This document shows, one piece after another, positions 3,984-28,438 of a DNA stretch of 32,000 nt. How positions within the stretch are numbered: position 1 is the stretch's first letter; every line of letters starts with the position of its first letter. The notes under the pieces are model-generated. The model was not told the origin of the DNA. It did not search any database and saw nothing but the letters and a program-made list of their open reading frames with translations. Position numbers and translations under genes: made by a program. Location of the stretch: contig SFIM01000013.1 in assembly GCA_004556155.1 (NCBI GenBank), forward strand, positions 18,603 to 50,602. The letters run 5' to 3'. Source of the DNA: Clostridiales bacterium. GTDB lineage: Bacteria > Bacillota > Clostridia > Christensenellales > Aristaeellaceae.

Positions 3984-4224
3984 GGTTAAGGTTCGGGTCT
4001 GTGGTTGAAAACCGATGCCAGTCGCAGGCAAAGCGGTCCACGTAAGCCTGGAGAATTTCCGGGTGAGCATGGTGCGGTTTAGACGTAAGTCCGGCCGGAT
4101 GAAAATCCGAGAGAGCGGCGTGGGGGCCAAGATGCTATGAGCAATGCTCCTGCCGGCGAGTGTGGGGTCAAAGACCAGGTCAGCCTTCCTTAAACCGGAA
4201 AAATTATCAGGGGGTTTACCATCC
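3984..4224 (+). promoter_or_regulatory. long structured 5' leader (unclassified) of the zinc-ribbon gene
   Basis: About 240 nt separate the predicted TSS from the ATG at 4225, with no credible ORF. Local hairpins include CGGAU-GAAA-AUCCG (4096-4109), CCUGGA-GAAUU-UCCGGG (4047-4063), GGUC-AAA-GACC (4166-4176) and GAGC-AAU-GCUC (4140-4150). The ends GGUUAAGG (3984-3991) and CCUUAAACC (4187-4195) can pair. Confidence 0.35.
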
Positions 4225-5710: not shown

Positions 5711-6088
5711 ATGGACAAGCGGGAAATTCTAAATTGCCTATCTGAATTCCCTTATGATCGAAATGAGTATTGGGTCATCACTGGCGGAGCCATGGTGCTA
5801 TATGATATTCGTGAGCAGACTGCTGACATTGATCTTGGATGCAGCGAGCGATTAGCTGATCGTCTGGAAGCAGACGGCTGTCTGTTCCGGCGAACGGAGC
5901 ATGGGAAAAGATGGTTCAAATACGGCAGGAATATAGAGATTTTTGAGGAATGGCTGATGGACGGCACGGAATCAGTCCATGGCTTCAAGGTCATATCCAT
6001 CAAGGGATTGATTGAAATGAAACAGGAGCTTGGACGGGAAAAGGATAAAAAGGATATGGAATTGATTCAGGCATTTCTGAACCGATAA
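5711..6088 (+). CDS. small nucleotidyltransferase-fold protein (hypothetical)
   Basis: GAGGG RBS (5699-5703) precedes the ATG at 5711. WVITGGAMVLYDIREQTADIDLG looks like the GG...DxD minimal NTase motif. Composition is clearly AT-richer than the flanks. Confidence 0.55.
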   Translation: MDKREILNCLSEFPYDRNEYWVITGGAMVLYDIREQTADIDLGCSERLADRLEADGCLFRRTEHGKRWFKYGRNIEIFEEWLMDGTESVHGFKVISIKGLIEMKQELGREKDKKDMELIQAFLNR

Positions 6089-6198
6089 CCGCCAGCCTGC
6101 CGAACGGCCCCCTTGGCGCGGCGATGCTGCGGGCGCGCCCATTGCAGACGCCCCTGCGCCTTGTCCGCTGCCAGGGCGGCCTCATGATGAACAGCAAT

Positions 6199-6246
6199 GG
6201 CCCTCCGTATGACGCGGCAGATACGGAGGGCCAGTTGTTTTATTTG
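6199..6246. terminator. hairpin shared by convergent genes (NTase and sigG)
   Basis: 12-bp stem GGCCCTCCGTAT / ATACGGAGGGCC (6199-6210 / 6221-6232) with a T-rich tail on the + strand. Confidence 0.55.
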
Positions 6247-6274
6247 CTGGATGCGCCCGCCGGGGGCGTGGCGC

Positions 6275-7057
6275 TCAGCTTTCCGACACATACTTGCGCA
6301 TGTGCTGCAGGGCGTTCTTTTCCAGCCGCGATACCTGCGCCTGGGAGATGCCGATCTCGCCGGCGACCTCCATCTGCGTGCGCCCCTCGAAAAAGCGCAT
6401 GCGCAGGATACTCTGCTCGCGCTCGGTCAGGCGGCGCAGCGCCTCGCTGACGGCCAGATTTTCCAGCCACTGGCTGTCCGTATGGCGCGGATCCTTGACC
6501 TGATCGATGATGTAGATGGCGTCGCCGCCGTCGTTATAGATCGGCTCAAACAGGGATACGGGATCCTGGATGGCCTCCAGCGCCAGCACCACGTCCTCCT
6601 CGGGCACGTCCAGCGCCTTGGCGATTTCGCCCACGCTGGGCTCACGGTTCATCTCGGCCACCAGGCGGTCGCGCGCTTGCAGGGCTTTATAGGCCGTATC
6701 GCGCAGGCTGCGGCTGACGCGGATGGGGTTGTTATCCCGCAGGTAGCGGCGGATTTCGCCGATGATCATCGGCACGGCATAGGTGGAAAAGCGCACGTTC
6801 TGCGTCACGTCAAAGTTATCAAGCGCTTTGATCAGCCCGATGCAGCCCACCTGAAACAGGTCGTCCGCGTTTTCCCCGCGATTGCTGAAGCGCTGCACCA
6901 CGCTGAGCACCAGCCTGAGATTGCCGCGGATAAACTCCTCCCGCGCCGCGCGGTCGCCGCCATGTACCAGCGGAAACAGCTCGCGCATGCGCTCATTGGT
7001 AAGCACGGGCAGGGTGGAGGTTTCCACCCCGCAGATCTCTACCTTGCTGCTTGCCAT
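6275..7057 (-). CDS. sigG: sporulation sigma factor SigG (forespore, SigF/G clade)
   Basis: Sigma-70 regions 2-4 are present (RGNLRLVLSVVQRF, DLFQVGCIGLIKALDNFD, STYAVPMIIGEIRRYLRDNNPIRVSRS, ISQAQVSRLEK). The gene lies downstream of sigE, as in the canonical spoIIGA-sigE-sigG cluster. Confidence 0.93.
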   Translation of the reverse strand: MASSKVEICGVETSTLPVLTNERMRELFPLVHGGDRAAREEFIRGNLRLVLSVVQRFSNRGENADDLFQVGCIGLIKALDNFDVTQNVRFSTYAVPMIIGEIRRYLRDNNPIRVSRSLRDTAYKALQARDRLVAEMNREPSVGEIAKALDVPEEDVVLALEAIQDPVSLFEPIYNDGGDAIYIIDQVKDPRHTDSQWLENLAVSEALRRLTEREQSILRMRFFEGRTQMEVAGEIGISQAQVSRLEKNALQHMRKYVSES

Positions 7058-7082
7058 ACCGATTTTTACCTCCGATGAAATC

Positions 7083-7111
7083 AGTATGGCTTTTCGCGCC
7101 CGCCTTTATGC
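7083..7111 (-). promoter_or_regulatory. forespore-type (sigma-F/sigma-G) promoter of sigG
   Basis: The minus strand reads GCATA (7107-7111), 18-nt spacer, CATACTG (7082-7088). This is close to the GHATR-N18-CATxHTA consensus and lies ~25 nt upstream of the sigG ATG. Confidence 0.5.
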
Positions 7112-7130
7112 GCGCGGGGCGAACTTTTGT

Positions 7131-7799
7131 GGGGGAAGACGGGGACGAGGAGACGAAGGGAACGGGGAAAACGGGGGAAACGTTACTTTCTTCAGTGAAG
7201 AAAGTAACAAAGAACCGGTATTGTAGACGAAAAAGCTGTTGGAATAAAACTGGAAGGCGGCACCGCCGCCCCCGTGGCAGGGAAAAACTTGAATCGCTCG
7301 GTTCGGAGTAAACTCCAACCGGACGATTCTTCATTTTTCCCCTTCGGGCGTGCTGCGCACGCCCTGCGCTGATCTGCGATCAGCGTGCCGCGGGAGCGAT
7401 AGTTGGGTGCAGGAATCCTGTATGGCGGTTGGCAATAGATTTAATGGAACGGGCAACGGAAGGCTTCTCCTCAAGGAGAAGCCTTTTGGTGAGTGCACTC
7501 ACCAACTATCGTTACCCGCCACGTCTGATTTCTGCCCCAACCACGCCCCCGTGGCAGCGGACAGCGCAGCTGGACGCGAGGGCGTGCGTAGCACGACCAT
7601 GGGGGAAAGCAGGAAACGAACGGAGGAAAGCTTGCTTTCATCCGGGCGGTTCAGGCTTTCTCCTGCCACGGGGTGGCCAGGGCCACTCCCAGTTTTATTC
7701 AATCGACTTTCATGTCACAAACAGGTTCTTTGTTTCTTTCTTGACTCAAGAAAGAAACGTACCCCCTTCGTCCCCCTCGTCCCCCTCGTTCCTGCCCCC
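7131..7799. repeat. element A: 669-bp nested-palindromic modular intergenic element (unclassified family)
   Basis: Left arm from 7131 and right arm up to 7799 are inverted copies. Each carries an ACG-purine tract, a 27-bp palindrome (7182-7208, 7732-7758), AAAGAACC, a GAATAAAACTGG block, and a CCCCGTGGCA...GCCACGGGG stem enclosing hairpins. The centre is a 20-bp perfect palindrome at 7486-7505. The element is homologous to 17626-17868 and 21056-21898. Confidence 0.85.
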
Positions 7800-8504
7800 T
7801 TAGCTGCTCATCCGGGTCAGCTCCACGTTCAGGCGCGAAAGGATGCGCTTTTCCAGCCGGGAGATGTAGCTTTGCGATATCCCCAGCGCGTCGGCAACCT
7901 CCTTTTGCGTCATCTCCCGCGCGCCGCCCAGACCAAAGCGAAGCTGCATGATCTGCTGCTCGCGCAGGGGCAAGCGCGCCAGCGCCGCGCGCAATAGCTG
8001 CTTTTCCACCTTGTCGTCCATGCGGCGGTAAACCAGATCGCTCTCCGTGCCCAGGATATCGCTTAGCAGCAGCTCGTTGCCATCCCAATCCTTGCGCAGC
8101 GGCTCATCCAGGGAGATTTCATAGCGAATCCGCGCCGTGTGGCGCAGATGCATCAGCATTTCGTTTTCGATGCAGCGCGAGGCGTAGGTGGCCAGCTTGT
8201 TCTTCTTTTCGGGGTCAAAGGTGTTGACTGCCTTGATCAGCCCGATCGTGCCGATGGAGATGAGATCCTCCAGCCCCACGCCCGAGCTTTCAAACTTGCG
8301 GGCAATGAACACCACCAGCCGCAGATTGCGCTCAATCAGGATGGAGCGCACCGTGCCGTCATCCGTGGGCAGCTTTTGCAAAAGCTCCGCTTCTTCCTCG
8401 CGCGTAAGCGGCTGGGGAAGCGGGTCCGCCCCGCCGATGTAATCCAGCGAACCCGCGCAGAGCCGCGCCCAGATTGCGTATAGCTGCCGTCGCATATCAA
8501 TCAT
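7800..8504 (-). CDS. sigE: sporulation sigma factor SigE (pro-sigma-E)
   Basis: The pro-sequence is followed by the [12 protein letters not shown] signature of SigE/SigK. It also has [13 protein letters not shown] and [13 protein letters not shown]. It lies immediately downstream of spoIIGA. Confidence 0.93.
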
Positions 8505-8531: not shown

Positions 8532-9293
8532 TTATAAATTCAGCGTGGGCGGCAGCAGCGCGCGCCGCCCGTGCAGGCAGGGCGATACCGCCACAACCGC
8601 GTCCGCCGCGCGCCATACGCGGCCGTCGCGCACATATAGCCCCCGCGGGCGAAAGCACATCATCAGCTGCTTGCCGCTGGCCGTGCGCACGCAGATCAGC
8701 CGAAATCCGCGCGGCAGCGTGCTTAGCTGCTCGCAGCGCGTGCCGGGCGGCAGATAGGCGCGGATGGCCTGATAGGGCACCACCACCACGGGCAATTCGG
8801 TGACGGGATCGCGCAGGCAGTTGCCGCTGTCCACCAGCCCGTCCAGCGATACGCCGCCGCGCTCGAACAGCAGGCGGACGTCCGCGCGCTCCCCCGCGCG
8901 CGATTGCCAGCGCAGCAGCAGATGCACGGCGTAAAGCACGCCCGGCGCGCAGGCCAGCGCGGCCGCCCAGCCGCCCAGACCCAACCGGTGCATATACTGC
9001 GCCATGCCCGCGGACAAAAGCCCGGCAATCAGCAGCCGGGCGCTGCCGCCCGGCGCGCGGCGCAGACCAAAGGCCAGCAGCGCCATCAGCACGGCGATGG
9101 GCAGCGCGGCATAGGCGCTGGCGTGCAGCCCCCACAGGGATAGGGCGATCATGGACAGAAGGGCGCCTGCCAGCGCGGAAAGCAGCACGCGCCCCGGCCG
9201 CGCGCGCAGGGAGGATAGCCGCATGGCCGCCGTCAGGCACAGCGTATCCATCAGCAGGTTCATCAGCAGATATTCCTCGCCTATGACGACCAT
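8532..9293 (-). CDS. spoIIGA: sigma-E processing aspartic peptidase SpoIIGA
   Basis: Polytopic N-half, with LVDSGNCLRDPVTELPVVVV matching the D-[ST]-G-N active-site motif of SpoIIGA. Start chosen at the ATG at 9293, after GGAGGGAG; the ORF extends to 9416. Confidence 0.85.
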   Translation of the reverse strand: MVVIGEEYLLMNLLMDTLCLTAAMRLSSLRARPGRVLLSALAGALLSMIALSLWGLHASAYAALPIAVLMALLAFGLRRAPGGSARLLIAGLLSAGMAQYMHRLGLGGWAAALACAPGVLYAVHLLLRWQSRAGERADVRLLFERGGVSLDGLVDSGNCLRDPVTELPVVVVPYQAIRAYLPPGTRCEQLSTLPRGFRLICVRTASGKQLMMCFRPRGLYVRDGRVWRAADAVVAVSPCLHGRRALLPPTLNL

Positions 9294-9315
9294 AACGCTC
9301 CCTCCTACGCTGCCT

Positions 9316-9349
9316 ATGATAGCGCGTTCACCGGGCAAGGGCCGTCGAT
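9316..9349 (-). promoter_or_regulatory. possible spoIIG-type promoter (long spacer)
   Basis: The minus strand reads ATCGAC (9344-9349), 22-nt spacer, TATCAT (9316-9321). This resembles the 22-bp-spaced Spo0A-dependent spoIIG promoter architecture. The 0A-box match is weak. Confidence 0.3.
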
Positions 9350-9412
9350 ACGGAGCGCGTAAAAAAGCGAAATAGCGCGGGAAAGAGAAGATGAAGGGGA
9401 AGCTTTTTGCAT

Positions 9413-9447
9413 GCAAAAAGGCGGCAGATCGTTTGACCTGCCGCCTT
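9413..9447 (-). terminator. intrinsic terminator after rny
   Basis: The minus strand reads AAGGCGGCAG ... CUGCCGCCUU followed by UUUGCAUGC. Confidence 0.75.
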
Positions 9448-9461
9448 GATAGGCTGCTTTA

Positions 9462-11003
9462 TTATTTGGCGTATTCCGTGCTGCGGGTTTCGCGGATCAC
9501 GTTTACGCGGATCTGGCCGGGATACTCCAGCTCACGCTCGATGCGCTTGGCAATTTCCTTGGCCATCACCTTGGTGCCCTCGTCGGTTACATCCTCGGGC
9601 TTGACCATGATGCGGATCTCGCGGCCGGACTGGATGGCGAAGGACTTTTCAACGCCGGCAAAGTCGTTGGCGATGGCCTCCAGCTTCTCCAGACGCTTGA
9701 TGTAGTTCTCCAGCGATTCGCGGCGCGCGCCGGGACGGGCGGCGCTGATGGCGTCGGCGGCCTGCACCAGCACGGCCTCCACCGTCTGCGGCTCCACATC
9801 GTTGTGGTGCGCCAGGATGCAGTGGATCACGTCGTTGCTCTCGTGATACTTGCGGGCCAGTTCGCCGCCCAGCTGCACATGCGTGCCTTCCTGCTCATGG
9901 TCGACAGCCTTGCCGATATCATGCAGCAGACCCGCGCGCTTGGCCAGATGAACGTCCGCGCCCAGCTCGGCGGCCATCAGGCCGGCCAGATGGCTGACCT
10001 CGATGGAGTGCTTGAGCACGTTCTGGCCATAGGAGGTGCGGTAGCGCATGCGGCCCAGCAGCTTGACCAGCTCGGGATGCAGGCCGTGCTGACCCGTCTC
10101 GAAGATGGCCTGTTCGCCAGCCTCGCGGATCTGGTTATCCACTTCCTTCTTGGCCTTTTCCACCATTTCCTCGATGCGGGCGGGGTGGATGCGGCCATCC
10201 TGAATCAGCTTTTCGATGGCGATGCGCGCAATCTCGCGGCGCACGGGATCGAAGGCGGATACGATGACGGCTTCGGGGGTATCGTCGATGATCAGATCGA
10301 CGCCCGTGGCGGTTTCCAGGGCGCGGATGTTGCGGCCCTCGCGGCCGATGATGCGGCCCTTCATATCGTCGTTTGGCAGGTTAATGACGGACACCGTGGT
10401 TTCGGCCACATGGTCGGCGGCGCACTTCTGGATGGCCAGGGCGATGATGTTGCGGGCCTTCTTTTCGCCCTCGTCCTTGGCCTTGGCCTCGATATCGCGC
10501 ACCATGGCGGCGGCGTCGTGGTAGGCTTCCTTCTGCACGCGGCTGATGATCATCTGCTCGGCCTCATCCTGGGTCATGCCGGCGATGCGTTCCAGCTCCT
10601 TCACCTGCTTGTCGCGCAGCTGCTCGGCCTCGTCGTAGAGGGCCTGCGTCTGCTCGGACTTTTGGTTGATGGCCTCCTCGCGCTTTTCGAGGTTATCCAT
10701 CTTTTTATCCAGCATTTCCTCACGCTGGTTCACGCGGCGCTCGCTGCGCTGCATTTCGGCGCGGCGGGTGCGGATCTCGTCGTCCAGCTTGGTTTTGAGG
10801 CGAAGGACCTCCTCCTTGGCCTCGATTTCCATTTCTTTTTTCGTTTCCGCCGCCTTGCGGGTAGCGTCGTCCAACAGTTTTTTCGCGTATTCCTCGGTTC
10901 GGCCGATGCGCTTTTCGGCCATGTTCTTGCGATAAAAATAGCCGCCGCCCGCGCCGACCAGCGCGAAGACGACCATGAGTGCGATTGCGAGAATTAAGTC
11001 CAC
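9462..11003 (-). CDS. rny: ribonuclease Y
   Basis: N-terminal TM helix, Glu/Lys-rich coiled coil, KH domain ([15 protein letters not shown]) and HD domain ([17 protein letters not shown]...LLHDIGKA). GTG start at 11003, 7 nt after GGAGG; the upstream in-frame ATG at 11057 has no RBS. Confidence 0.93.
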
Positions 11004-11454: not shown

Positions 11455-11528
11455 AGGGGCATGGTGTAATGGTAACACGTGGGTCTCCAAAACCTTTGTT
11501 GTGAGTTCGAGTCTTACTGCCCCTGCCA
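11455..11528 (+). tRNA. trnW: tRNA-Trp (anticodon CCA), CCA end encoded
   Basis: Hand-folded cloverleaf. Acceptor stem AGGGGCA/TGCCCCT, D stem GTGT/ACAC, anticodon loop CTCCAAA, T arm GTGAG-TTCGAGT-CTTAC, discriminator G followed by CCA. Confidence 0.92.
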
Positions 11529-12525: not shown

Positions 12526-13923
12526 TCAGGCGTATGCCTTCAGCGTGAAGGAAGCGCGCACCAGAGCTCGCCCCTCGGCCAGGGTGTGGATTTCCCCCGC
12601 GTGCAGCAGCTGGGACAGGAGGTTGCCAATCGCCGTGGCTTCGGCCGGGCCCGCGGTCAGCGGACGCGCAAGCGCGCGGGCAGTCAGGCGGTTCAGATAA
12701 TCGTTGCGGCAGCCGCCGCCCACCACGCGCAGACAGGCGATGCGGCGGCCGGTCAGCGCTTCCAGCTCGTCCACCGCCGCGCGGTAGCAATCCGCCAGGC
12801 TATGGCACACGCACGCGGTCAGGTCGCCCACATCCGCAGGCGCGGGATAGCCGCCCTCGGCCAGGGCGCTGCGCAGCTCCGCCGCCATGGAGACGGGGGC
12901 CAGAAAGCGCACGGCGTTGCAGTCCACCCGGCCTGGATAGCCGTCGTGCCGCTCGGCCAGCGCTGCCAGCTCGGCAAAGGAGGTCTGCGGGCACAGCTCG
13001 CGCCGCAGCTCCTGCAGCATCCAAAGGCCCATGATGTTTTTGAGATAGCGAATCGTGCCCTGCGCGCCGCCCTCGTTGGTCAGGTTGCGCGCACGGCTTT
13101 CCGGGGTCAGGATGGGCGCGGGCAGCTCCATGCCCAGCAGGCTCCATGTGCCGCTGGAAAGATATGCGTCGTTTGCCTCCAGCGGCGCGGCCATCACGGC
13201 GGCGGCGGTATCGTGCGTGGGAGCCAGGAGAATTTGGGTATCAAAGCCCACGGCCTGGGCAATTTCAGGCAGCAGCGCGCCTACCCGCGTGCCGGGCTGC
13301 GACAGGGGGCCGAACAGCCGCCGCGGAAAGCCGCAGCGGTCGATCAGCTCCCAGTCCCAAGCGCGCGCGCGCGCGTCCAGCAGCCCCGTGGTGGAGGCGT
13401 TGGTATACTCATGCACGCGCTGGCCGGTGAGCAGATAGTTCAGATATTCGGGCAGCAGCAGCATTTCCTGCGCGGCATCCAGCTCTCCTGCTTCGCGCAG
13501 GGCGGTCAGCTGATAGATGGTATTAAACGGCTGCTTTTGGATACCTGTGCGGGCATACAGCGCTTCCTCATCGATGACGCGGCGGACGATTTCATCCATG
13601 CCCTGCGTGCGGCCGTCGCGATAGCTTACCGCGTCGCCCAGCATGCGTCCCTGCGCGTCCAGCAGCACAAAGTCCACGCCCCAGGTGTCGATGGCTACGC
13701 TGCGCGGGGTGATTCCCTGCGCCCTCGCTGTGCGCAGGCCGTTCAGGATTTCGGCAAACAGCCGGTCGATATCCCAGCATAAGCGCCCGTTTTTTCGCTG
13801 CGCGCCGTTGGAAAAGCGATAAAGCTCGGTCAGCTCCAGCCGGCCGTTTTTTACCTGTCCCAGCATGTGCCGGCCGCTGGACGCGCCGATATCGATGGCG
13901 ATCATGGCGTTGTTCATAGGCAT
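12526..13923 (-). CDS. rhaB: rhamnulokinase (FGGY family)
   Basis: AIDIGASSGRHMLG N-terminal ATPase motif, with overall RhaB-like sequence. It is the last gene of the rhamnose block. Confidence 0.9.
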   Translation of the reverse strand: MPMNNAMIAIDIGASSGRHMLGQVKNGRLELTELYRFSNGAQRKNGRLCWDIDRLFAEILNGLRTARAQGITPRSVAIDTWGVDFVLLDAQGRMLGDAVSYRDGRTQGMDEIVRRVIDEEALYARTGIQKQPFNTIYQLTALREAGELDAAQEMLLLPEYLNYLLTGQRVHEYTNASTTGLLDARARAWDWELIDRCGFPRRLFGPLSQPGTRVGALLPEIAQAVGFDTQILLAPTHDTAAAVMAAPLEANDAYLSSGTWSLLGMELPAPILTPESRARNLTNEGGAQGTIRYLKNIMGLWMLQELRRELCPQTSFAELAALAERHDGYPGRVDCNAVRFLAPVSMAAELRSALAEGGYPAPADVGDLTACVCHSLADCYRAAVDELEALTGRRIACLRVVGGGCRNDYLNRLTARALARPLTAGPAEATAIGNLLSQLLHAGEIHTLAEGRALVRASFTLKAYA

Positions 13924-13926
13924 TCC

Positions 13927-16719
13927 TCAGCCAAAGGCGCGGGCGTTGAGGGCCTGCTCCAGGCGCTTTAGCTTCCAGGGAGCCAGGGGCGAGAAGGGGA
14001 AGGAGCGCAGCTGGCGCAATGACATCTTTTGGATATCCTTGACGGCCTTCAATTCGGTCAGCTCGGGTGCGATGGTCAATATCTCCTCGCGCAGATCATC
14101 GTGCTTGAGCAGCTGCTCAAAGGGCACGTCCAGCAGCAGCCTTCCCGAATAGGGCGCGGCGCACACGCAATGGAAGGCATAGCTGCCGCTTTCCAGCACA
14201 GCGTGCAGGCAGCCGTCGGCCTGCTCCTGCCAGTCCGCGTCGCTGCCCGTCACCGTGCCCAGGGGCAGCACGGCCTCGGCCTGCGCGCCAAAGGGCACCT
14301 CGAGCTCCCAATCGAAGGTCGTTTCATCCACCGTTTTCCAGTGGGTGCGGTACCGTCCCATGGCGGATTCATAGCTGAAATCGATTTCACCCAGGCGCGT
14401 ATCGGGATGCGGATGCATCAGCGCCTTGCGGAAGCCCGGCGCATCCTCCATGGGAGCCAGCCCCGCCGCGTCGCGGCACACCCACTCCATCACCGCGCCG
14501 TAGGCGTAATGGTTGAGCGAGTTCATGCCGGTGCTGGACATATGGCCGTCAGGCATCACGGAGTTCCAGCGCTCCCACACGGTGGTAGCGCCCATGTTCA
14601 CCTCATACAGCCAGCCGGGGTAGCTTTCATTCAGAAACAGCGTGTAGGCCAGGTGGTTAAAGCCCGCCTGCGTGAGCACGCTGCACAGATAGGCCGTGCC
14701 CACAAAGCCCGTGCGCAGCTCGTTCCGGGCGTTTTCAAACAGGCGATCCAGCGCGGCCTTGAGGATGGGCGTGTCGGACTCGGGCATCAGCCCCAGGAAC
14801 AGCGACAGGATGTGCGCCGTCTGGGTGTTGACGGTCAGCCCGCCCTTAGGGGCGCGGTAGGTTTGGCGGATGGCGGCAAGAATCTCCTGCTCCAGGGCGG
14901 CGTAGCGTGCAGCGTCGGGCGCGTAGCCCAGGATGGCGGCGGCCTTGCGCGTCAGGCGCGTGGAGTACAGATAGAAGGCCGAGGCGATGAAATCGGGATC
15001 GGTGCCGCCCGTGCAGGAGGCTGGGAAGGCCGCATCCAGCGCCAGCCAGTCGGCAAAGTGGAAGCCCGCCTGCCACAGGCGATGGTCGCCCGTCTCGTGA
15101 TCGACGCGATGAATCCACTCCACCCACAGCTTCATATTGTCGTATTGCTCGCGCAGCAGGGCGGTATCGCCGAAGAACTGATATACCGTCCAGGGGATGA
15201 TGCTGCCCGCGTCCGCCCAGGCGCAGGCAGGGGAGCCCTGCATGCCAAAGGAGGGCACCACGTGCGGCACGCCGCCGCCGCGCTCGCGCTGCTCAAAGGC
15301 CATATCGCGCATGAACTTGGCGTAGAAGGCCGCGCTGCTCATCTGGTAGCAGGCGGTGGCGCAGAACACCTGCGCGTCGCCCGTCCAGCCCATGCGCTCG
15401 TCGCGCTGGGGGCAATCGGTGGGCACATCCACAAAGTTGCCGCGCTGCCCCCACAGGGCGTTTTCGCACAGGCGGTTCACCTTGTCGCTGGCGGTGCGGA
15501 TGAAGGCCGTCTGCTCCATATCGGAATAGAGCACGCAGCCCACAAAGTCATGCAGGTCGATTTCCTCCCCAAAGCCCTCCAGCTGGATATACCGGAAGCC
15601 GAAGAAGGTGAAGTGCGGCCGCGCCCAGGCCTCCTGCCCATCGCAGATGTAGGTAAAGGTCTGCCTGGCGGTGCGCAGGTTATCGGTATAGAAGCAGCCG
15701 TCCTGCAGGATTTCGCCATAGCGCAGGGTGTAGGTATGGCCGCGCTCGGCGGCTGCGCGGAAGGTGACAAAGCCCGTGATTTCCTGCCCCATATCCAGCA
15801 CGGTTTCGCCTGCGGGCGTATGCAGCACGGCGGCGGGGCGCAACGTCAGCATGGCGCGCACAGGCGGGCTCATGCGCGGGCGCAGCAGGCCTGTATCCAT
15901 ATCGGGCAGCAGGCGCGCGGGCAGAGCGGCGGACAGGGGCTTGGAGGCGTCCCAGGTTTCGCCGTCATAAATATTGGAAAACAGCACGGGCGATTCGCCG
16001 CAGCGCCAGGTATCGTCCGAGGGAATGATGATCTCCGCGCCGTTATCCAGCGCCGCGTGCAATTCGCAGATCAGCGCCTGCGTATTGCCGAAGATTTCCT
16101 TCTGCCCCTGGAAGCCAAAGCGCCCCTTGTACCAGCCGTCGCCCAGCAGCACGGCGATTTCATTGTCCTCCGCCAGCAGGTCGGTCACATCGTAGGTTTG
16201 ATATTGCAGCCAGCTGTCGTATTTGTTGCAGCCGGGGGCCAGGTATTCGTCGCCTGCCTTCTGGCCGTTGATAAAGGCCTCGTACAGACCCAGGCCGCAG
16301 ATATACAGCCGCGCGGAGAGCACCCGCCCGGGCAGGGCAAAGCGCTTGACCAGCCGCGCGTTGGCAATCTCCCTGGGCGCGGCGATCCACTGCCCCAGCC
16401 AGGGCTCCTGCTGCTTGGCGGTTTCAAACCACGCGCGCGGGCTGAGCGCCGTTTCGCCGGTATCGGCGGTTACGGCGACGTCCCAGGTATAGCGCGTACG
16501 CGGGGACAGCGGAATATCGGGCGCAAAGCACAGGCTGTCGATATCCTGCCGCGTGCCCGAATCGTAAACCACGCTTTCATCCGGGCCGTACACCCGCACA
16601 CGGGCGGACTGCTGGCGCTTGCCGCCCTCGCAGGCGACCTTATAGGAAAAGCGCAGGGGGGTCAGATCAAAGCCCAGCGGGCGCGCGATGTGATTGACCT
16701 GCATGCCGTATACTCGCAT
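13927..16719 (-). CDS. alpha-L-rhamnosidase (GH78)
   Basis: 930-aa protein with the typical GH78 N-terminal beta-sandwich and six-hairpin catalytic-region sequence (e.g. DVPTDCPQRDERMGWTGDAQVF). Rhamnose-gene context. Confidence 0.9.
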   Translation of the reverse strand: MRVYGMQVNHIARPLGFDLTPLRFSYKVACEGGKRQQSARVRVYGPDESVVYDSGTRQDIDSLCFAPDIPLSPRTRYTWDVAVTADTGETALSPRAWFETAKQQEPWLGQWIAAPREIANARLVKRFALPGRVLSARLYICGLGLYEAFINGQKAGDEYLAPGCNKYDSWLQYQTYDVTDLLAEDNEIAVLLGDGWYKGRFGFQGQKEIFGNTQALICELHAALDNGAEIIIPSDDTWRCGESPVLFSNIYDGETWDASKPLSAALPARLLPDMDTGLLRPRMSPPVRAMLTLRPAAVLHTPAGETVLDMGQEITGFVTFRAAAERGHTYTLRYGEILQDGCFYTDNLRTARQTFTYICDGQEAWARPHFTFFGFRYIQLEGFGEEIDLHDFVGCVLYSDMEQTAFIRTASDKVNRLCENALWGQRGNFVDVPTDCPQRDERMGWTGDAQVFCATACYQMSSAAFYAKFMRDMAFEQRERGGGVPHVVPSFGMQGSPACAWADAGSIIPWTVYQFFGDTALLREQYDNMKLWVEWIHRVDHETGDHRLWQAGFHFADWLALDAAFPASCTGGTDPDFIASAFYLYSTRLTRKAAAILGYAPDAARYAALEQEILAAIRQTYRAPKGGLTVNTQTAHILSLFLGLMPESDTPILKAALDRLFENARNELRTGFVGTAYLCSVLTQAGFNHLAYTLFLNESYPGWLYEVNMGATTVWERWNSVMPDGHMSSTGMNSLNHYAYGAVMEWVCRDAAGLAPMEDAPGFRKALMHPHPDTRLGEIDFSYESAMGRYRTHWKTVDETTFDWELEVPFGAQAEAVLPLGTVTGSDADWQEQADGCLHAVLESGSYAFHCVCAAPYSGRLLLDVPFEQLLKHDDLREEILTIAPELTELKAVKDIQKMSLRQLRSFPFSPLAPWKLKRLEQALNARAFG

Positions 16720-16734
16720 GGTGATGCCTCCTTA

Positions 16735-17601
16735 TTATTGCGCGGCAAAGGGATCCGCGCAGAAAATATCAATGTTGCCACCATCCAGGGTGATGCGGTA
16801 GGTGCCGTCCTTCGCAATTACGTGGCGGCGCACGCCCAGGCGGCGCATCTCCTCCCGCACGCGCAGAATATCCCAGACGCCCGAATCGTAGCCCCGGCGA
16901 CCCTGGTTGTTATCCCACAGCCATTTGGGCGCGCACCACAGGCACACCTGCGGGCGGATGGCATGGTACACATCCATGCGCACGGCGCTTTGCCCATGAT
17001 GACCCATCTGCACGATATCGCTTTGCAGCGCGTCCCCATGCATGCGCAGCAGCTTTTCGCCGCCCTCCACGCCCAGATCGCCCAGAAACAGCGTGCGCAC
17101 GCCCTCGCTGGTCATGCGCAGCACGCAGGAGGAATTGTTGGAGGCGTTGCGGGTAAAGGCAGGATCGCTGGTATAGAGCACATCCCAGGCCGTGCCGTCG
17201 ATGTCCAGATGCTCGCCCTCGCGCAGGATATGCTCCCGGCTGCCGATCTGCGATCGCAGCGCCTGATAGCCGTCCCAGGCGGGCAGGCTGCGCGGCTCGC
17301 CGATTTCCAGCACCCGGCGCTCGGGATAGTGCAGGTACAGCGCGTCCAGCGAAAAGGCTTCGTGGCGATTTTGCAATAGATCGTAGAGCGCGTACACATG
17401 GTCGGAGTGCGGGTGGGTGAGAAACCACGCCTTCACCCTGGGACGATTGCCGCCCAGGCGGCGCAGCAGATACAGCAGGTAATCCGCGTCCCCCGCCGTG
17501 CCGCCGTCAATGACGATCAGCGAATCGCCGGGGGTTTTGATCACATAGCCCATCATCTGCGTGTGCGTCTGCGGGGCCAGCTGATAGATTTCACAGGGCA
17601 T
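16735..17601 (-). CDS. MBL-fold metallo-hydrolase
   Basis: HPHSDHVYAL (HxHxDH) together with a later MGHHG motif. AAAGGAG RBS. The stop lies 15 nt upstream of the rhamnosidase start. Confidence 0.85.
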   Translation of the reverse strand: MPCEIYQLAPQTHTQMMGYVIKTPGDSLIVIDGGTAGDADYLLYLLRRLGGNRPRVKAWFLTHPHSDHVYALYDLLQNRHEAFSLDALYLHYPERRVLEIGEPRSLPAWDGYQALRSQIGSREHILREGEHLDIDGTAWDVLYTSDPAFTRNASNNSSCVLRMTSEGVRTLFLGDLGVEGGEKLLRMHGDALQSDIVQMGHHGQSAVRMDVYHAIRPQVCLWCAPKWLWDNNQGRRGYDSGVWDILRVREEMRRLGVRRHVIAKDGTYRITLDGGNIDIFCADPFAAQ

Positions 17602-17625
17602 GGTAAAGCTCCTTTATGATAGATT

Positions 17626-17868
17626 GGCGGGGATGGGAGGACGGCAACTCATTCGTCTCGCGTTTGGGAGAAGGCTTTTATGGTTGTGCGGTTTTCATGC
17701 TGGTTGCCGTTCTATTCAACAATCGCAAATAGATACGAACAACCAATGCATCCAAGCATGCCCCCGTGGCACGCCGATGCAATCGACTTTCACGTCACAC
17801 ATAGGTTCTTTGTTACTTTCTTCACTGAAGAAAGTAACGTATCCCTCGTCCCCCGTCTCCTATCCTTC
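17626..17868. repeat. element C: 243-bp internally deleted member of the same repeat family
   Basis: The right part (17775-17868) matches the terminal module of A and B: the GTGTGACGTGAAAGTCGATTG block, AAAGAACC, the 27-bp palindrome 17811-17837, and the C-rich/ACG-purine tract. GCCCCCGTGGCAC (17759-17771) matches the core stem. The left end keeps the G-rich tract GGGGATGGGAGGACGG. Confidence 0.7.
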
Positions 17869-17870
17869 AT

Positions 17871-17904
17871 CAGAAAATGGGGACGCCGCCAGGTGCCGCG
17901 CCCC
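17871..17904 (-). terminator. terminator-like hairpin just after rhaD
   Basis: The minus strand reads GGGGGCGC...GCGUCCCC followed by AUUUUCU, 9 nt after the rhaD stop. Confidence 0.5.
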
Positions 17905-17912
17905 CAATCAAA

Positions 17913-18737
17913 TCAATCCAGAAACTCCTCGCGCAGCGTTACGCCAAATTCCTTGGCGATGGCGCGCAGATCATCGTCCGTGATGGTCTGCAGCACAGGC
18001 TTGCCGCTGGCAAGCACCAGCATGTAAATCTGCGCCGCCTTTTCAATGGTGTGCATCAGGCCAAAGGCCGTGTCAAAGTCCGGCCCGGATACAAACAGCC
18101 CGTGGTGCGCCCATACCGCCGCGTCATACTCGCGCATCAGCCTGCTGGTGGCCAGGGCGATATCGCGCCCGCCGGGCACCATCCAGGGCACCGCGCCCAC
18201 GCCGCCGGGGAAAACCACAGGGCACTCGGTGGCGCTTTGCCAGAGCGCGCGGGTGAAATCGCGCGCCGTCAGGGGCAGGATGTAGGTCATGGCGATTACA
18301 TTGGCCGGGTGCGCGTGATAGATCACGCGGCACGCGCCGCCCGTGGCCGCCTTGCGCACGGAATGGTTGAGAAAATGGCTGGGGAACTCGCTGGTGGGGC
18401 GGCCGCCCTTTTCCAGCCCCCATACAATGCGCCAGGCGTCGCCCGCCGCGTTGATTTCCACAATGCAGCAGGTATCCTGCATAGCGCGCTGCACATGGCG
18501 GAAATACTTGCCGCTGCCGGTGGCGATGAAATACTCGCCGCGCAGGTTATCGGCCTGCACGTCCATCTGTACCCATTTGCCGGGCACGGCGCGGAAGAAG
18601 GGGCGCAGCTGATCCACCTCCTCAGCCGTCATGCGATAGGTGAGGTTGCCGCCGTTGCGCTCGTGCCAGCCCTGCTGCCAGCCATCGTCGCACACGCGGG
18701 CAAAGGACTGCATCACTTCAAAATCGGTTGCTTTCAT
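17913..18737 (-). CDS. rhaD: rhamnulose-1-phosphate aldolase
   Basis: GWHERNGGNLTYRM and the class II aldolase His ligands (HAHP...HHG) align with RhaD. Confidence 0.92.
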   Translation of the reverse strand: MKATDFEVMQSFARVCDDGWQQGWHERNGGNLTYRMTAEEVDQLRPFFRAVPGKWVQMDVQADNLRGEYFIATGSGKYFRHVQRAMQDTCCIVEINAAGDAWRIVWGLEKGGRPTSEFPSHFLNHSVRKAATGGACRVIYHAHPANVIAMTYILPLTARDFTRALWQSATECPVVFPGGVGAVPWMVPGGRDIALATSRLMREYDAAVWAHHGLFVSGPDFDTAFGLMHTIEKAAQIYMLVLASGKPVLQTITDDDLRAIAKEFGVTLREEFLD

Positions 18738-18743
18738 CTGTGC

Positions 18744-19985
18744 TTACTTCCTTTCGGCAAGAGCCTGCCGTTCATATTGCTGCACGGCGGACAGCCATTT
18801 TTCATTTTCGGGCACATCCTGGCGGCGGCAGTATTCCGCCCACACCTCGCCCCAGGGCAAGGATTTGTATTCCTCCTGCAGAGCCAGCAGCTCGGTAAAG
18901 CGGCAGGCGTTTTGCAATTCGGCCAGCGCCTGATGCGGGGTCAGCAGGGCCAGCAGCAGCGCCTTTTGCATATTGCGCGTGCCGATCACCCATGCGGCCA
19001 CGCGGTTGATGGAGCCGTCAAAGAAATCCAGGCCGATCAGCGCCTTATCGCAGGCGTTGCAGCGCACGATTTCATCGGCAATGCCGCGCAGGTCGTCCGT
19101 CAGCGTGACCACATGGTCGCTGTCCCAGTGCATGGGGCGGGTTACGTGCAGCGGCAGCTTATCGTAGAAGGCCAGCTGCGCGGGGATTTTGTCCGCGATG
19201 GACTCCTCAGGGTGGTAATGGCCGCTGTCCATCAGGTTATATACGCCGGGATGCGTGGCGGCGTAGTTGGCGTAAAACTCCGCCGAGCCCACGGTGTAGG
19301 CCTCCAGGCCGATGCCGAAGAATTTGCTTTCCACGCTGTCGATCACGCCGGGCAGGGGCTCGGCAAAGATCTGATCCAGGCTGTCGCGCAGGCGCAGGCG
19401 CGGGGATAGCCGGTCGGCGGGCACGTCCTTGTAGCCGTCGGGAATCCAGATATTGCACAGGCAGTGCGTGCCCAGCTCGCGCGCAAAATACGCGGCGATA
19501 CGGCGGCAGGCCACAGCATGGCGGATCCAGTAGGCGCGCACCGCCTCATCGGGGCTGGACAGGGTAAGGTTATCCTTGACCATCGGGTGGGAGAAGAACG
19601 TGGGGTTAAAATCCAGGCCGATCTGATGCGCCTTGGCAAACGCCACCCAGGGGACGAAGTGCTCGGGGCGCAGCTGATCGCGCTTGCCCTCGCCGCCGAT
19701 GGCGTAGCTGGCGTGCAGGTTCAGCCGCTTGCAGCCGGGAATCAGCGACAGCGCGGTTTCAAAATCGCGCGTCAGCTCCTCAAACGTGCGGGCGCGGCCG
19801 GGATAATTGCCCGTCACCTGGATGCCGCCGTCCAGCGCGCCGCCCAGGCTTTCCAGGCCGGTCACGTCGTCGCCCTGCCAGCAGTGAATGCTCACGGGAA
19901 TGGACGCGAGCGTTTGCAGGGCCTTTTCCGTATCTATGCCAATGTCCGCGTAGCGGCGCAGGGCCAGCTGATAGCCTTCGTTCAT
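18744..19985 (-). CDS. rhaA: L-rhamnose isomerase
   Basis: ALQTLASIPVSIHCWQGDDVTG and WDSDHVV are RhaA hallmarks. Confidence 0.93.
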   Translation of the reverse strand: MNEGYQLALRRYADIGIDTEKALQTLASIPVSIHCWQGDDVTGLESLGGALDGGIQVTGNYPGRARTFEELTRDFETALSLIPGCKRLNLHASYAIGGEGKRDQLRPEHFVPWVAFAKAHQIGLDFNPTFFSHPMVKDNLTLSSPDEAVRAYWIRHAVACRRIAAYFARELGTHCLCNIWIPDGYKDVPADRLSPRLRLRDSLDQIFAEPLPGVIDSVESKFFGIGLEAYTVGSAEFYANYAATHPGVYNLMDSGHYHPEESIADKIPAQLAFYDKLPLHVTRPMHWDSDHVVTLTDDLRGIADEIVRCNACDKALIGLDFFDGSINRVAAWVIGTRNMQKALLLALLTPHQALAELQNACRFTELLALQEEYKSLPWGEVWAEYCRRQDVPENEKWLSAVQQYERQALAERK

Positions 19986-20062
19986 GGGAAATCTCTCCTT
20001 TAGTCAAAGCTGAGGTTCGCTATCCTTTATTGTACAGAAAACAGCGCGGCGGGAAAGGACGT

Positions 20063-21040
20063 TTATCGCCTTTCGTCGCAACCTGAATTAACCCGCCAGG
20101 CGCTGGGAGACATGCCCGTGGCCGACTCGAAGATGCGGTAAAAATAGCTGCTGTTGCTGTAGCCCACCGCCGCGCAGATTTCCATCACGCTCAGGTCGGT
20201 TTCGCGCAGCATGCGCTTGGCCTTTTCAATGCGCCGCTCCTGCAGCAGCGCGGTGCAGTTTTTGCCGGTAGCCTCCTTGAGCACCTTGCACAGATAGGCG
20301 GAGGACACATGCTTGCGCCGGGCGAAATCGCGCAGCACAAAATCAGCATAGTTCTGGCGGATTTCCTGCAGCAGCTCGATGACCACCAGGTTTTCCTGAT
20401 GCGTGGCGGCGGGCATACGCATGCATTCCGGCCGGCTGAGCAGGTGCAGAAACAGCAGCCCCATCTCGGTGCGGCGAATTTGCAGGCCGGCGGCCTTGGG
20501 CGCGATGAGCGAATGCACAATGCTTTGCAGCAGCCACTGGATCTCGCTGATCTCGGCCACGCGGAAGTGCAGGTAGGCCATGTCCTGCTCATAATTGCGC
20601 AGCGCGTCCAGCAGGAATCTGCCCAGCACGTTATGGGTGCCGATCATATCGGGCACAAAATCCAGAAACTCCTGCTGGATCAGGAAGTTGACCGCGATGT
20701 CGTTTTCCCCGCACCGGGCGATGCTGTGCGCGCTGTGGCGGTTGATCAGCAGCAGCTCGCCCGCCTGCAGGCGCACCGTGCTGCCGTCGGGCATGCCGTG
20801 CAGCGTTTCGCCCTGCAGCATATACATCATTTCCACATAGTCGTGCCAGTGCATGGGAAAATCGGCAAAGCGCGTATGCGGCCGTAGCGAGATCATCTGC
20901 CGCGAGGGCACAAAGCGCTCGCCCTCCACGATGAAGGCGCTGCGGTCGGTATAGCGTCCCTGCGCCAGGGGTTCGCCGCGCAGCAGGCTTTCTTCCTCCT
21001 GCGTATGGGGCGCGAAAAAGCGAATCAGGCTGTCGTCCAT
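20063..21040 (-). CDS. AraC-family regulator with N-terminal cupin (RhaR/RhaS-like)
   Basis: Cupin segment (FADFPMHWHDYVEMMYMLQGE) plus a C-terminal double HTH (ICAAVGYSNSSYFYRIFESATGMSPSAWR). It is adjacent to rhaA. Confidence 0.9.
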   Translation of the reverse strand: MDDSLIRFFAPHTQEEESLLRGEPLAQGRYTDRSAFIVEGERFVPSRQMISLRPHTRFADFPMHWHDYVEMMYMLQGETLHGMPDGSTVRLQAGELLLINRHSAHSIARCGENDIAVNFLIQQEFLDFVPDMIGTHNVLGRFLLDALRNYEQDMAYLHFRVAEISEIQWLLQSIVHSLIAPKAAGLQIRRTEMGLLFLHLLSRPECMRMPAATHQENLVVIELLQEIRQNYADFVLRDFARRKHVSSAYLCKVLKEATGKNCTALLQERRIEKAKRMLRETDLSVMEICAAVGYSNSSYFYRIFESATGMSPSAWRVNSGCDERR

Positions 21041-21055
21041 GCGTGGGCTCCTTTC

Positions 21056-21898
21056 GGGGAGGGGATGGGGAACGAGTGGGGAGGACGAAAGGGAACGTTC
21101 CTTTCTTCAGTGAAGAAAGGAACAAAGAACCGATGTGTGACGTGAAAGCCGATTGAATAAAACTGAAAGGCAGGACTGCTACCCCGCCCCCATGGTCGTG
21201 CTGCGCACGACCTGCGCTGATCTGCGATCAGCGTGCCACGGGGGCGTGGTTGGGTGCGGGAAGTCTTGCGCAGCGATTGACGTCTGTTGGAAAAACGCGC
21301 TCACCAAAAGGCTTCTCCTTGAGGAGAGGCTCCGCCGCAGGCGGTGGTGAGGTGTAGGCTGCGAAGCAGCCGTTATCAAAACAATATAAGGACTACGCCG
21401 CTGCGGCGGCTACGACCCTCACAATTCGGCATAATCGTTTTGCAACGCTGACGCTTGCAAAACTCGTTGCCTCATTGGCGCTGCATCTGGCACAGAGGCG
21501 GATTACGCGCCTCATCAGTCAGGACAAGCCTGACAGCTTCCCCTCCAAGGGGAAGCCTTTTGGTGGCCGCGCTCTCTATATGTAAAAAACTGCGTTTCCC
21601 TTCATCCGCTTCGCTATGCTCAGCACCAGTCGCCCAACCGCCGTCTGCGGGGCAGCAGACAGCGCAGCTGGATGCCAGGGCTGGCGAAGCCAGACCAAGG
21701 GGGAAAGCGAAGGGATGACTGGGCGGAGCTTGCTCCAGACCAGGCAGCGCAAGCTTTTCCCTGCCCCGCAGAAACCTGCGTCCCCTTCCAGTTTTATTTC
21801 AGCAGCTTTCACGTCACACGCAGCTTTCTTTGGTACTTTCTTGGGCTCCAAGAAAGTACCGTCCTCTTCGTCCTTTTCGTCTCCTCGTCTCCCCGTCC
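21056..21898. repeat. element B: 843-bp full-length member of the repeat family
   Basis: The termini are inverted: a G-rich tract from 21056 and a C-rich tract to 21898. The palindromes are at 21097-21123 and 21832-21860. The 44-nt core block 21199-21242 differs at only 2 positions from 7351-7394. Each arm carries a CACCAAAAGGCTTC-hairpin module (21301-21331 and 21537-21567). The central ~200 bp is a string of tri-loop hairpins. Confidence 0.85.
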
Positions 21899-28298: not shown

Positions 28299-28317
28299 AT
28301 CTGCCGACAATTGAATA

Positions 28318-28418
28318 CCTTATCAAGAGTGGCGGAGGGAACGGCCCGATGATGCCCGGCAACCGGCGCAAGGCGTGCGGTGCTAATTCCGGCGGCGCGA
28401 TTGCGCCGGCAGATAAGG
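28318..28418 (+). promoter_or_regulatory. SAM-I (S-box) riboswitch aptamer
   Basis: CCTTATCAAGAGTGGCGGAGGGAACGGCCCGATGATGCCCGGCAACC...GGTGCTAATTCC...AGATAAGG matches the S-box consensus. The P1 helix is CCTTATC/GATAAGG. It lies upstream of metK. Confidence 0.92.
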
Positions 28419-28438
28419 CGTAAAGGAAACACCATCTC

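Follow-up and report, generated by a model that had tools for sequence, protein, structure and literature searches.

A giant palindrome between sigE and sigG is probably one copy of a selfish foldback repeat family in an uncultured human-gut Clostridiales lineage

The 32,000-nt stretch of DNA analysed here (the window, positions 18,603 to 50,602 of contig SFIM01000013.1 in the Clostridiales bacterium assembly GCA_004556155.1) carries spoIIGA, sigE and sigG, all on the minus strand, and between the latter two a spacer of 742 nt, of which 669 bp (7131-7799) form a single imperfect palindrome that we call copy A. SigE and SigG match NCBI proteins of these names exactly, the matches coming from an uncultured 'Clostridiales bacterium' metagenome-assembled genome (MAG). 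An earlier reading of the letters alone (the original prediction) had described copy A as a non-coding element of two inverted halves and had offered two views of it, either a purpose-built insulator, processing site or RNA stabiliser at the junction of the two genes or a selfish element resembling a MITE (a miniature transposable element with inverted repeats) that found a tolerated site. Our analysis deals with what copy A is made of, where else such elements occur and which of these views the comparison with relatives favours. The features of the locus, in window positions, are as follows.

6275-7057, minus strand: sigG, downstream flank, exact match to NCBI proteins named SigG
7053-7089, minus strand: local 12-bp hairpin, not part of the element, from the fold of read-through RNA
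7081-7111, minus strand: sigG promoter-like site of sigma-F/G type, outside the element, with -35 GCATA at 7111-7107, an 18-nt spacer and -10 CATACTGA at 7088-7081
7131-7799, no strand assigned: copy A, whole foldback element of two inverted ~330-nt arms round a residual centre hairpin, from self-alignment and RNA fold
7131-7181, plus strand: left-arm outer tail, a G/A-rich tandem repeat of 9-nt period, GGGGACGAG-like (TRF period 9 at 7161-7182)
7182-7208, no strand assigned: end hairpin H1 of alpha type, GTTACTTTCTTCA-G-TGAAGAAAGTAAC, with perfect 13-bp arms
7243-7273, minus strand: outward-facing terminator-like hairpin plus CAGTTTTATT on the sigE-sense strand, from a consensus scan
7460-7487, plus strand: centre hairpin GGCTTCTCC-TCAA-GGAGAAGCC followed by TTTT, from an inverted-repeat search, matching cassette model positions 135-164
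7486-7505, no strand assigned: perfect 20-bp palindrome TTGGTGAGTGCACTCACCAA, read directly in the sequence
7670-7699, plus strand: right-arm, outward-facing terminator-like hairpin plus CAGTTTTATT, from a consensus scan
7732-7758, no strand assigned: end hairpin H1 of beta type, GTTTCTTTCTTGA-C-TCAAGAAAGAAAC, with perfect 13-bp arms
7759-7799, minus strand: right-arm outer tail, (GGGGACGAG)n, beginning right after the sigE stop codon (TRF period 9, 3.0 copies, 7763-7789)
7800-8504, minus strand: sigE, upstream flank, exact match to NCBI proteins named SigE, Pfam Sigma70_r2/r4, spoIIGA adjoining
8532-9416, minus strand: spoIIGA, Pfam Peptidase_U4

As originally placed, copy A starts with the first base after the sigE stop codon (TAA at 7802-7800, minus strand; element from 7799) and ends 20 nt upstream of a forespore-type sigG promoter that is conserved in relatives. 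When 7148-7793 is aligned with its own reverse complement, identity is 69.5% over 662 nt (E 2e-52), and an inverted-repeat search finds nested inverted pairs over the full span of copy A. This bears out the claim that the two halves are inverted copies of one another, yet the contrast drawn there between well-conserved outer ~125 nt and diverged inner parts needs correcting, as the arms align over their entire length and the repeat unit is the ~330-nt half. In the sigE sense, the RNA is predicted to fold with -380.8 kcal/mol, as against -232 +/- 5 for 20 shuffles (z = -27). None of the open reading frames (ORFs) in 7131-7799 has a Pfam match or a coding-type composition of codons and third codon positions (GC3), and Rfam 15 returns no match for copy A at gathering thresholds and only microRNA-type noise at E <= 10. 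That the palindrome is real, non-coding and correctly delimited by the original prediction is hereby confirmed.

From the outside in, each half consists of a tail, H1, AAAGAACC, GTGACGTGAAAG..GATTGAATAAAACTGG, several GC-rich hairpins and the centre. Across 76 ends of the family described below, the tails are degenerate 9-nt repeats of 59% G and 28% A, and their repeat number differs among samples at one and the same orthologous site, including the right tail of copy A. A canonical four-run G-quadruplex motif is seen in 14 of these 76 tails (the set examined includes the tail at 7759-7799, minus strand), each time on the strand that reads into the element; the G-runs of the two ends thus lie on opposite strands. 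H1 itself comes in an alpha type (GTTAC...loop CAGTG) and a beta type (GTTTC...loop GAGTC, or a GGAGCCC variant), which differ by two flipped base pairs. Covariation is pronounced: 99% of the free stem positions in 127 copies are paired, one position as A-T (77), T-A (43), C-G (3) or G-T (3) and another with four pair types. At roughly 17 distinct sites the ends are alpha/beta in ~15 cases, beta/beta in two and alpha/alpha in none, a split whose probability under random assortment we calculate as ~0.001; the dominance of alpha/beta pairing argues for copying of whole two-ended units.

Full-size elements carry one or two cassettes of ~165 nt at their centre (0-2 across the family), each made up of a 5' hairpin (GGAAGCCTTCTCC TTGA GGAGAAGG), a four-way junction closed by GAGGTGTAG/CTACACCTC and a terminator-like hairpin followed by TTTTGG. 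Copy A retains only the last of these cassette hairpins. Its centre hairpin, which the original prediction had correctly noted at 7462-7487 next to the 20-bp palindrome, is the remnant 3' end of a cassette and has its T-run on the strand antisense to sigE and sigG. The perfection of the 20-bp palindrome is a local matter, since the homologous stretch (TTGGTGAGTGCATCTGCCAA) is imperfect in another element (L183), one that has two direct cassette copies. The cassette is also seen alone, more than 3 kb from any H1 (L169 6966-7118, L218 7778-7930), and on its own it is perhaps an independent small palindrome able to nest within the larger element. A hammerhead-like core (CUGAUGAG) and a tRNA-like cloverleaf were considered for the cassette and rejected, Rfam returning nothing and only GATGAGG being conserved. 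As for the terminator-like sites of copy A, the two found do not exceed chance (1.2 +/- 1.1 in shuffles), and at 7273-7243 a CAG spacer stands between stem and T-run.

As had been predicted, two further copies lie nearby in the window; one is full and one a remnant.

21056-21898, no strand assigned: copy B, full element placed between the luxS stop codon and the ribosome-binding site (RBS) of an AraC-family gene, with one cassette on the minus strand at ~21296-21460
~17627-17866, no strand assigned: copy C, what deletion has left of an element: one alpha arm, the two tails and a scrap of cassette, where the close relative has ~918 nt

Beyond the window, an exact 31-nt H1 pattern occurs at 117 or more (at least 117) loci of human-gut metagenomes. 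The matches listed comprise 136 occurrences in 63 flank clusters with 76 distinct ends, and they place the family at about 50-60 distinct and unrelated intergenic sites. Many of them are found at contig ends, a pattern typical of repeats that break assemblies. Also among the matches listed are 36 inverted H1 pairs with an H1-to-H1 span of 129-1025 nt, which makes for elements of ~0.2-1.1 kb. An H1 profile gave no match in 114 unrelated genome loci (~0.83 Mb), and a degenerate pattern (AAAGNNGNTKRAATAAAACTG) run against a genome collection gave 114 chance matches and two real loci, both from one related MAG. Searching the literature with sequence strings returned no paper on the element and plasmid and phage databases gave no blastn match in distant mode, so the family, which is without a match in Rfam and Pfam as well, appears to be undescribed.

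Stop codons are faced by 51 of the 76 ends, 18 of these within +/-14 nt of the stop, and start codons by the remaining 25, the closest of which leave an RBS-sized 16-26 nt; divergent (promoter) gaps account for two of 26 element contexts. Ordinary spacers in this genome are often just 2-50 nt and, being so short, imply that tails reaching stop codons or RBSs need no special targeting. Family elements are found in both orientations relative to the flanking genes, and by RNA folding energy 14 elements favour one strand and 10 the opposite one, which amounts to no strand preference. Strand-specific RNA selection was accordingly rejected on these inconsistent energies and on G-U pair counts that are alike, and an orientation bias in tandem gene pairs (beta end upstream at ~6 sites, alpha at ~2) is not significant. 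Two copies (6400-6620 and 10560-10820) lie on a phage contig (L242, IMG/VR) in a structural-gene region recognised by matches to terminase, portal, major head, neck and tail proteins, where a complete short element adjoins the neck-protein gene and the other copy stands between the stop codon of the terminase large-subunit gene (terL) and the RBS of the portal gene. Late transcription of the phage presumably crosses both copies, and the family may travel from host to host on phages.

The spacer in relatives bears on the origin of copy A. All eight same-species contigs examined have a sigE-sigG spacer of ~733-742 nt, and an element is present there as well in L246 (SigE 97%) and in a close relative MAG (L021, genes 93-96% identical), where an extra ~278-nt centre includes a whole cassette that points from sigE towards sigG and occupies the place of the centre hairpin of copy A. 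In three relatives whose SigE is 85-87% identical (L243, L244, L245), the spacer measures just 103-108 nt, and these empty sites keep ACAAAAGT...GTATAA...CCATACTGA...GGAGG, a run through -35, -10 and RBS that is homologous to 7125-7058 of the window. Because of this short spacer in the 85-87% SigE relatives, the sigE-sigG copy is an insertion. The empty-site relatives carry a related element elsewhere, right after the sigG stop and before a convergent gene, uvrA or hisS (L243 4598-5189, L244 4594-4952), with both tails touching the stop codons of the convergent genes, one end being a different hairpin (GAGGGGCCGCTTTTAAGGTAAAAGCGCCCCTC) and the other an H1 variant with double compensatory changes. 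It follows that the family is older than these lineages and that it is occupancy which differs among them.

Once in place, the elements change quickly. Between window and L021 the element is 77-87% identical, whereas the genes on either side reach 87-91% at their third codon positions; the element evolves faster than neighbouring synonymous sites and shows no purifying selection. Along copy A, blocks of 93-100% identity to L021 alternate with blocks of 33-65%, and copy B, in its cassette part, matches the relative at 96.5% over 85 nt. Where inner blocks match poorly, sequence from other copies seems to have replaced them. An invertible centre (phase switch) was rejected, as the inner segments of window and L021 align poorly both ways. 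Orthologous sites differ in size, too: 950 versus 709 nt at sigE-sigG, 888 versus 613 nt at copy B, whose left arm is missing in the relative, and ~918 nt in the close relative versus an 84-nt remnant segment in the window at copy C, with size differences at further sites. Deletion, block replacement and slippage in the tails thus turn the family over.

We put the probability at roughly 80% that copy A belongs to a non-coding family of foldback repeats present in high copy number, MITE/BOX/BIME-like in kind, which fills short intergenic gaps in an uncultured human-gut Clostridiales lineage. Of the two views in the original prediction, it is the selfish one that fits the many unrelated sites, the empty 103-108-nt relatives and a rate of change above that of synonymous sites. 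Copy A would have inserted between the sigE stop and a pre-existing sigG promoter in the ancestor of the species group and afterwards have lost its cassette except for the last hairpin. For whole units to spread, an enzyme acting in trans would have to recognise the hairpin ends, and copies would persist because they land only where this is harmless. RNA reading through from spoIIG would fold copy A into an imperfect duplex of ~300 bp, which may slow, process or stabilise the transcript, though as a side effect and not as the reason for its presence. Such an effect, for instance as a long duplex or an RNase III substrate, is possible, and we infer that any insulation, processing or stabilisation of read-through RNA is incidental.

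Several findings weigh against a selfish repeat. The original prediction had looked to the spacer comparison for an empty site, a target-site duplication and exact ends; the first was found, yet against the empty sites of L243 and L244 there is no target-site duplication and no sharp terminus can be defined, and copy A has taken the place of ~35 nt that the ancestral spacer had from the stop codon to ACAAAAGT. Among close strains there is no empty site and hence no presence/absence polymorphism; since they differ in size only, the family may be immobile now. The sigE-sigG element is kept in 8/8 same-species contigs, the window, L021 and L246. No cognate transposase or other multi-copy gene was found in ~780 kb of element-bearing loci, which leaves mobilisation as a step that we purely infer. 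Lastly, copies agree well in H1 and in motifs such as AATAAAACTGG, a conservation that could reflect a function at the level of the host and not signals for transposition. With regard to candidate enzymes, clustering 635 locus proteins by context returned housekeeping paralogues only, no RAYT (Y1 HUH) gene was seen in the element-bearing loci (~780 kb, part of the genome only), and roughly 60 family ends share no flank motif.

We also give a small chance to a previously unrecognised mobile or host-maintained element, whose alpha and beta hairpins might be bound as single-stranded DNA by an HUH/RAYT-like or RNA-guided enzyme, whose G-rich 9-nt tails might be made or extended at integration and whose cassettes might be small RNAs or portable terminators, the host using the elements as movable modules for transcription or RNA processing, sigE-sigG included. 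A co-opted insulator that parts the mother-cell (spoIIGA-sigE) from the forespore (sigG) transcription unit is a rival view: hairpin and outward terminator-like modules would stop or process spoIIG read-through and leave sigG to its own promoter. Copy A falls precisely between sigE stop and sigG promoter, it is retained in all the contigs just named, its RNA is predicted to fold with extreme stability, the sigE-sense strand has a terminator-like hairpin plus T-run (7273-7243), the cassette terminator of L021 points the same way as sigE and spoIIG read-through is documented in B. subtilis (PMC5942855). We nonetheless regard it as unlikely. Relatives with the same promoter architecture do with a spacer of 103-108 nt, and the same type of element is found at about 50-60 unrelated sites among the matches listed and in both orientations. 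The T-run of the centre hairpin is on the antisense strand and terminator-like sites are no commoner than in shuffled sequence. Nor is copy A complementary to the sigG RBS beyond chance (-27.8 kcal/mol versus -28.7 +/- 2.7 in shuffles, with 105/200 shuffles as good), and a separate local hairpin already covers the sigG start codon in read-through RNA. No sigma-70-like outward promoter was detected in copies A or B, and from positions that abut RBSs without a detected promoter or fall between phage terL and portal, transcription presumably can pass the elements. As to the purpose-built device of the original prediction, it is not supported as the reason for the presence of copy A: relatives with the same sigG promoter lack the element, the centre of the element differs between sister lineages, and copies elsewhere abut RBSs or sit in a phage late operon (terL-portal).

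Small-RNA genes would be another way to explain such structure, be it the family as a whole or the ~165-nt cassette (5' hairpin, four-way junction, intrinsic terminator) with the arms as its carrier. The cassette does end in a hairpin plus TTTTGG, the GAGGTGTAG...CTACACCTC junction is closed by three hairpins with compensatory changes, L183 has its two direct copies, copy B matches the relative in its cassette part (the 96.5% over 85 nt given above) and cassettes also occur far from any H1. However, copies A and B lack a promoter-like site, the cassette is itself palindromic and scores on both strands, it is missing from many elements (copy A among them) and without an Rfam match, and family folding has no strand asymmetry, all of which makes this quite improbable to our minds. 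Most improbable of all is that 7131-7799 is a decayed protein-coding gene, a remnant of an insertion sequence (IS) or an assembly artefact. Gene callers do put ORFs on the element (191 aa in L235-L239, a 348-aa extended 'SigG' in L246), but these are without Pfam match or coding-type GC3, the two arms share no consistent reading frame, the spacer has the same length in eight independent assemblies and related copies are present in >100 contigs.

If anything at this junction resembles the B. subtilis arrangement, it is the local hairpin at 7053-7089 outside the element, in which the -10 region CCATACTGATTT (7078-7089) pairs with AAATCGGTATGG (7053-7064, with the start codon inside) and the RBS lies in the loop. 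As its formation is predicted only for RNA initiated upstream of PsigG, it could be a B. subtilis-like block on read-through translation. In B. subtilis, spoIIG transcripts that read through into sigG are kept from being translated by a hairpin, one that transcripts from PsigG are unable to form (PMC5942855). Junction and need to silence sigG on read-through RNA are the same (PMC5942855), yet the B. subtilis hairpin is short (20+ bp) and pairs the sigG RBS region, for which copy A has no complementarity above chance; the 7053-7089 hairpin fits that description and is the likelier analogue. A weaker 6-bp version of it is visible by eye in L243.

Where does the family belong among known repeats? 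Prokaryotic MITEs have been described as typically <500 bp and AT-rich, with 4-30-bp terminal inverted repeats (TIRs), target-site duplications, a cognate IS and stable stem-loop transcripts, and RNA of the Correia elements is cut by RNase III and can alter the expression of neighbouring genes (PMC10969869). Similar to MITEs (Correia/CREE of Neisseria, ERIC), our family is non-coding, intergenic and multi-copy, has terminal inverted repeats in the form of inverted arms, forms stable stem-loops and internal deletion variants, and combines many copies at unrelated loci with an empty site in relatives. Unlike MITEs, it has an inverted repeat that spans the whole element, its termini are fuzzy and made of variable tandem tails rather than sharp 4-30-bp TIRs, and copy A shows no target-site duplication. 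In size, family members lie on both sides of the 500 bp usual for MITEs (~0.2-1.1 kb; 669 bp for copy A). An autonomous IS sharing these ends was not found, there being no recurrent multi-context gene in the ~780 kb of loci and no inverted pair more than 1025 nt apart among the matches listed.

With REP/BIME/REPIN elements of Proteobacteria, the family has in common a 27-nt palindromic unit (H1) kept by compensatory change, inverted doublets and a mosaic of arms and cassettes with other motifs, along with extragenic location, a preference for 3' gene ends and positions that are stable across strains. REPINs are ~100 nt and tied to a RAYT (Y1 HUH) gene, and REPs are without long arms, cassettes and tails, all three of which our family has. 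In pneumococcus, BOX, RUP and SPRITE elements cluster and insert into one another, SPRITE elements being terminator-like (PMC10969869). These are akin to the family in that they, too, are Firmicute, intergenic and modular, with two partly complementary ends, a variable number of middle modules (boxA-boxBn-boxC), some of them terminator-like, and structured transcripts (PMC10969869). The likeness to BOX is one of build, no relationship in sequence being known, and the family differs in its size of up to 1.1 kb, ~300-nt arms, G-rich variable tails, heterotypic 13-bp end hairpins and a high-GC uncultured Clostridiales host. Since target-site duplication and sharp termini of a MITE are lacking and no cognate IS was found in the ~780 kb of loci, we class it as a form of its own among interspersed palindromic repeats and not as a member of a named family.

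Some observations concern individual copies and their surroundings. Copy C lies in a rhamnose-utilisation cluster (12526-21040, minus strand), after the aldolase gene's own terminator; the cluster comprises genes for an AraC regulator, rhaA, a class II aldolase, an MBL-fold hydrolase, an alpha-L-rhamnosidase and an FGGY kinase, and luxS is upstream of copy B. Copy B has a tail that continues right into the RBS (GAAAGGAG) of the AraC-family gene at 20063-21040 (region 21040-21100), a gene that seems to depend on transcription through or from copy B, given that no sigma-70-like promoter was found in the latter. Another contig (L225 1-5184) is 98.7% identical to window 5757-7347 and, in the middle of the left arm, switches to another beta arm and an unrelated downstream gene; either the repeat has led to a chimeric assembly or the element has mediated a genuine rearrangement. 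The ORFs miscalled on the element span 3061-3636 in L235-L239 and, as the N-terminally extended 'SigG', 3100-4146 in L246; a 396-aa protein with SigE sequence (P0050) may be a similar miscall. Public protein collections probably contain such spurious element-derived products. The only Rfam matches in the window are a raiA RNA (3987-4192, 173.7 bits), a SAM riboswitch (28317-28419, 84.4 bits) and one tRNA (11455-11525).

For sporulation, these findings do away with an idea that was attractive yet lacked support: the giant hairpin is no conserved means of keeping sigma-E and sigma-G expression apart. For genome biology, they bring to light an abundant and apparently undescribed repeat family in a common uncultured human-gut Clostridiales lineage, set apart by foldbacks of up to ~1 kb, heterotypic end hairpins with compensated changes, hypervariable G-rich tails at stop codons and RBSs and nested terminator-like cassettes. 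Its elements break, and probably chimerise, metagenome assemblies and attract spurious gene calls, while tail repeat number and element size are markers for strain typing. Finally, the elements may shape operon expression in this lineage.

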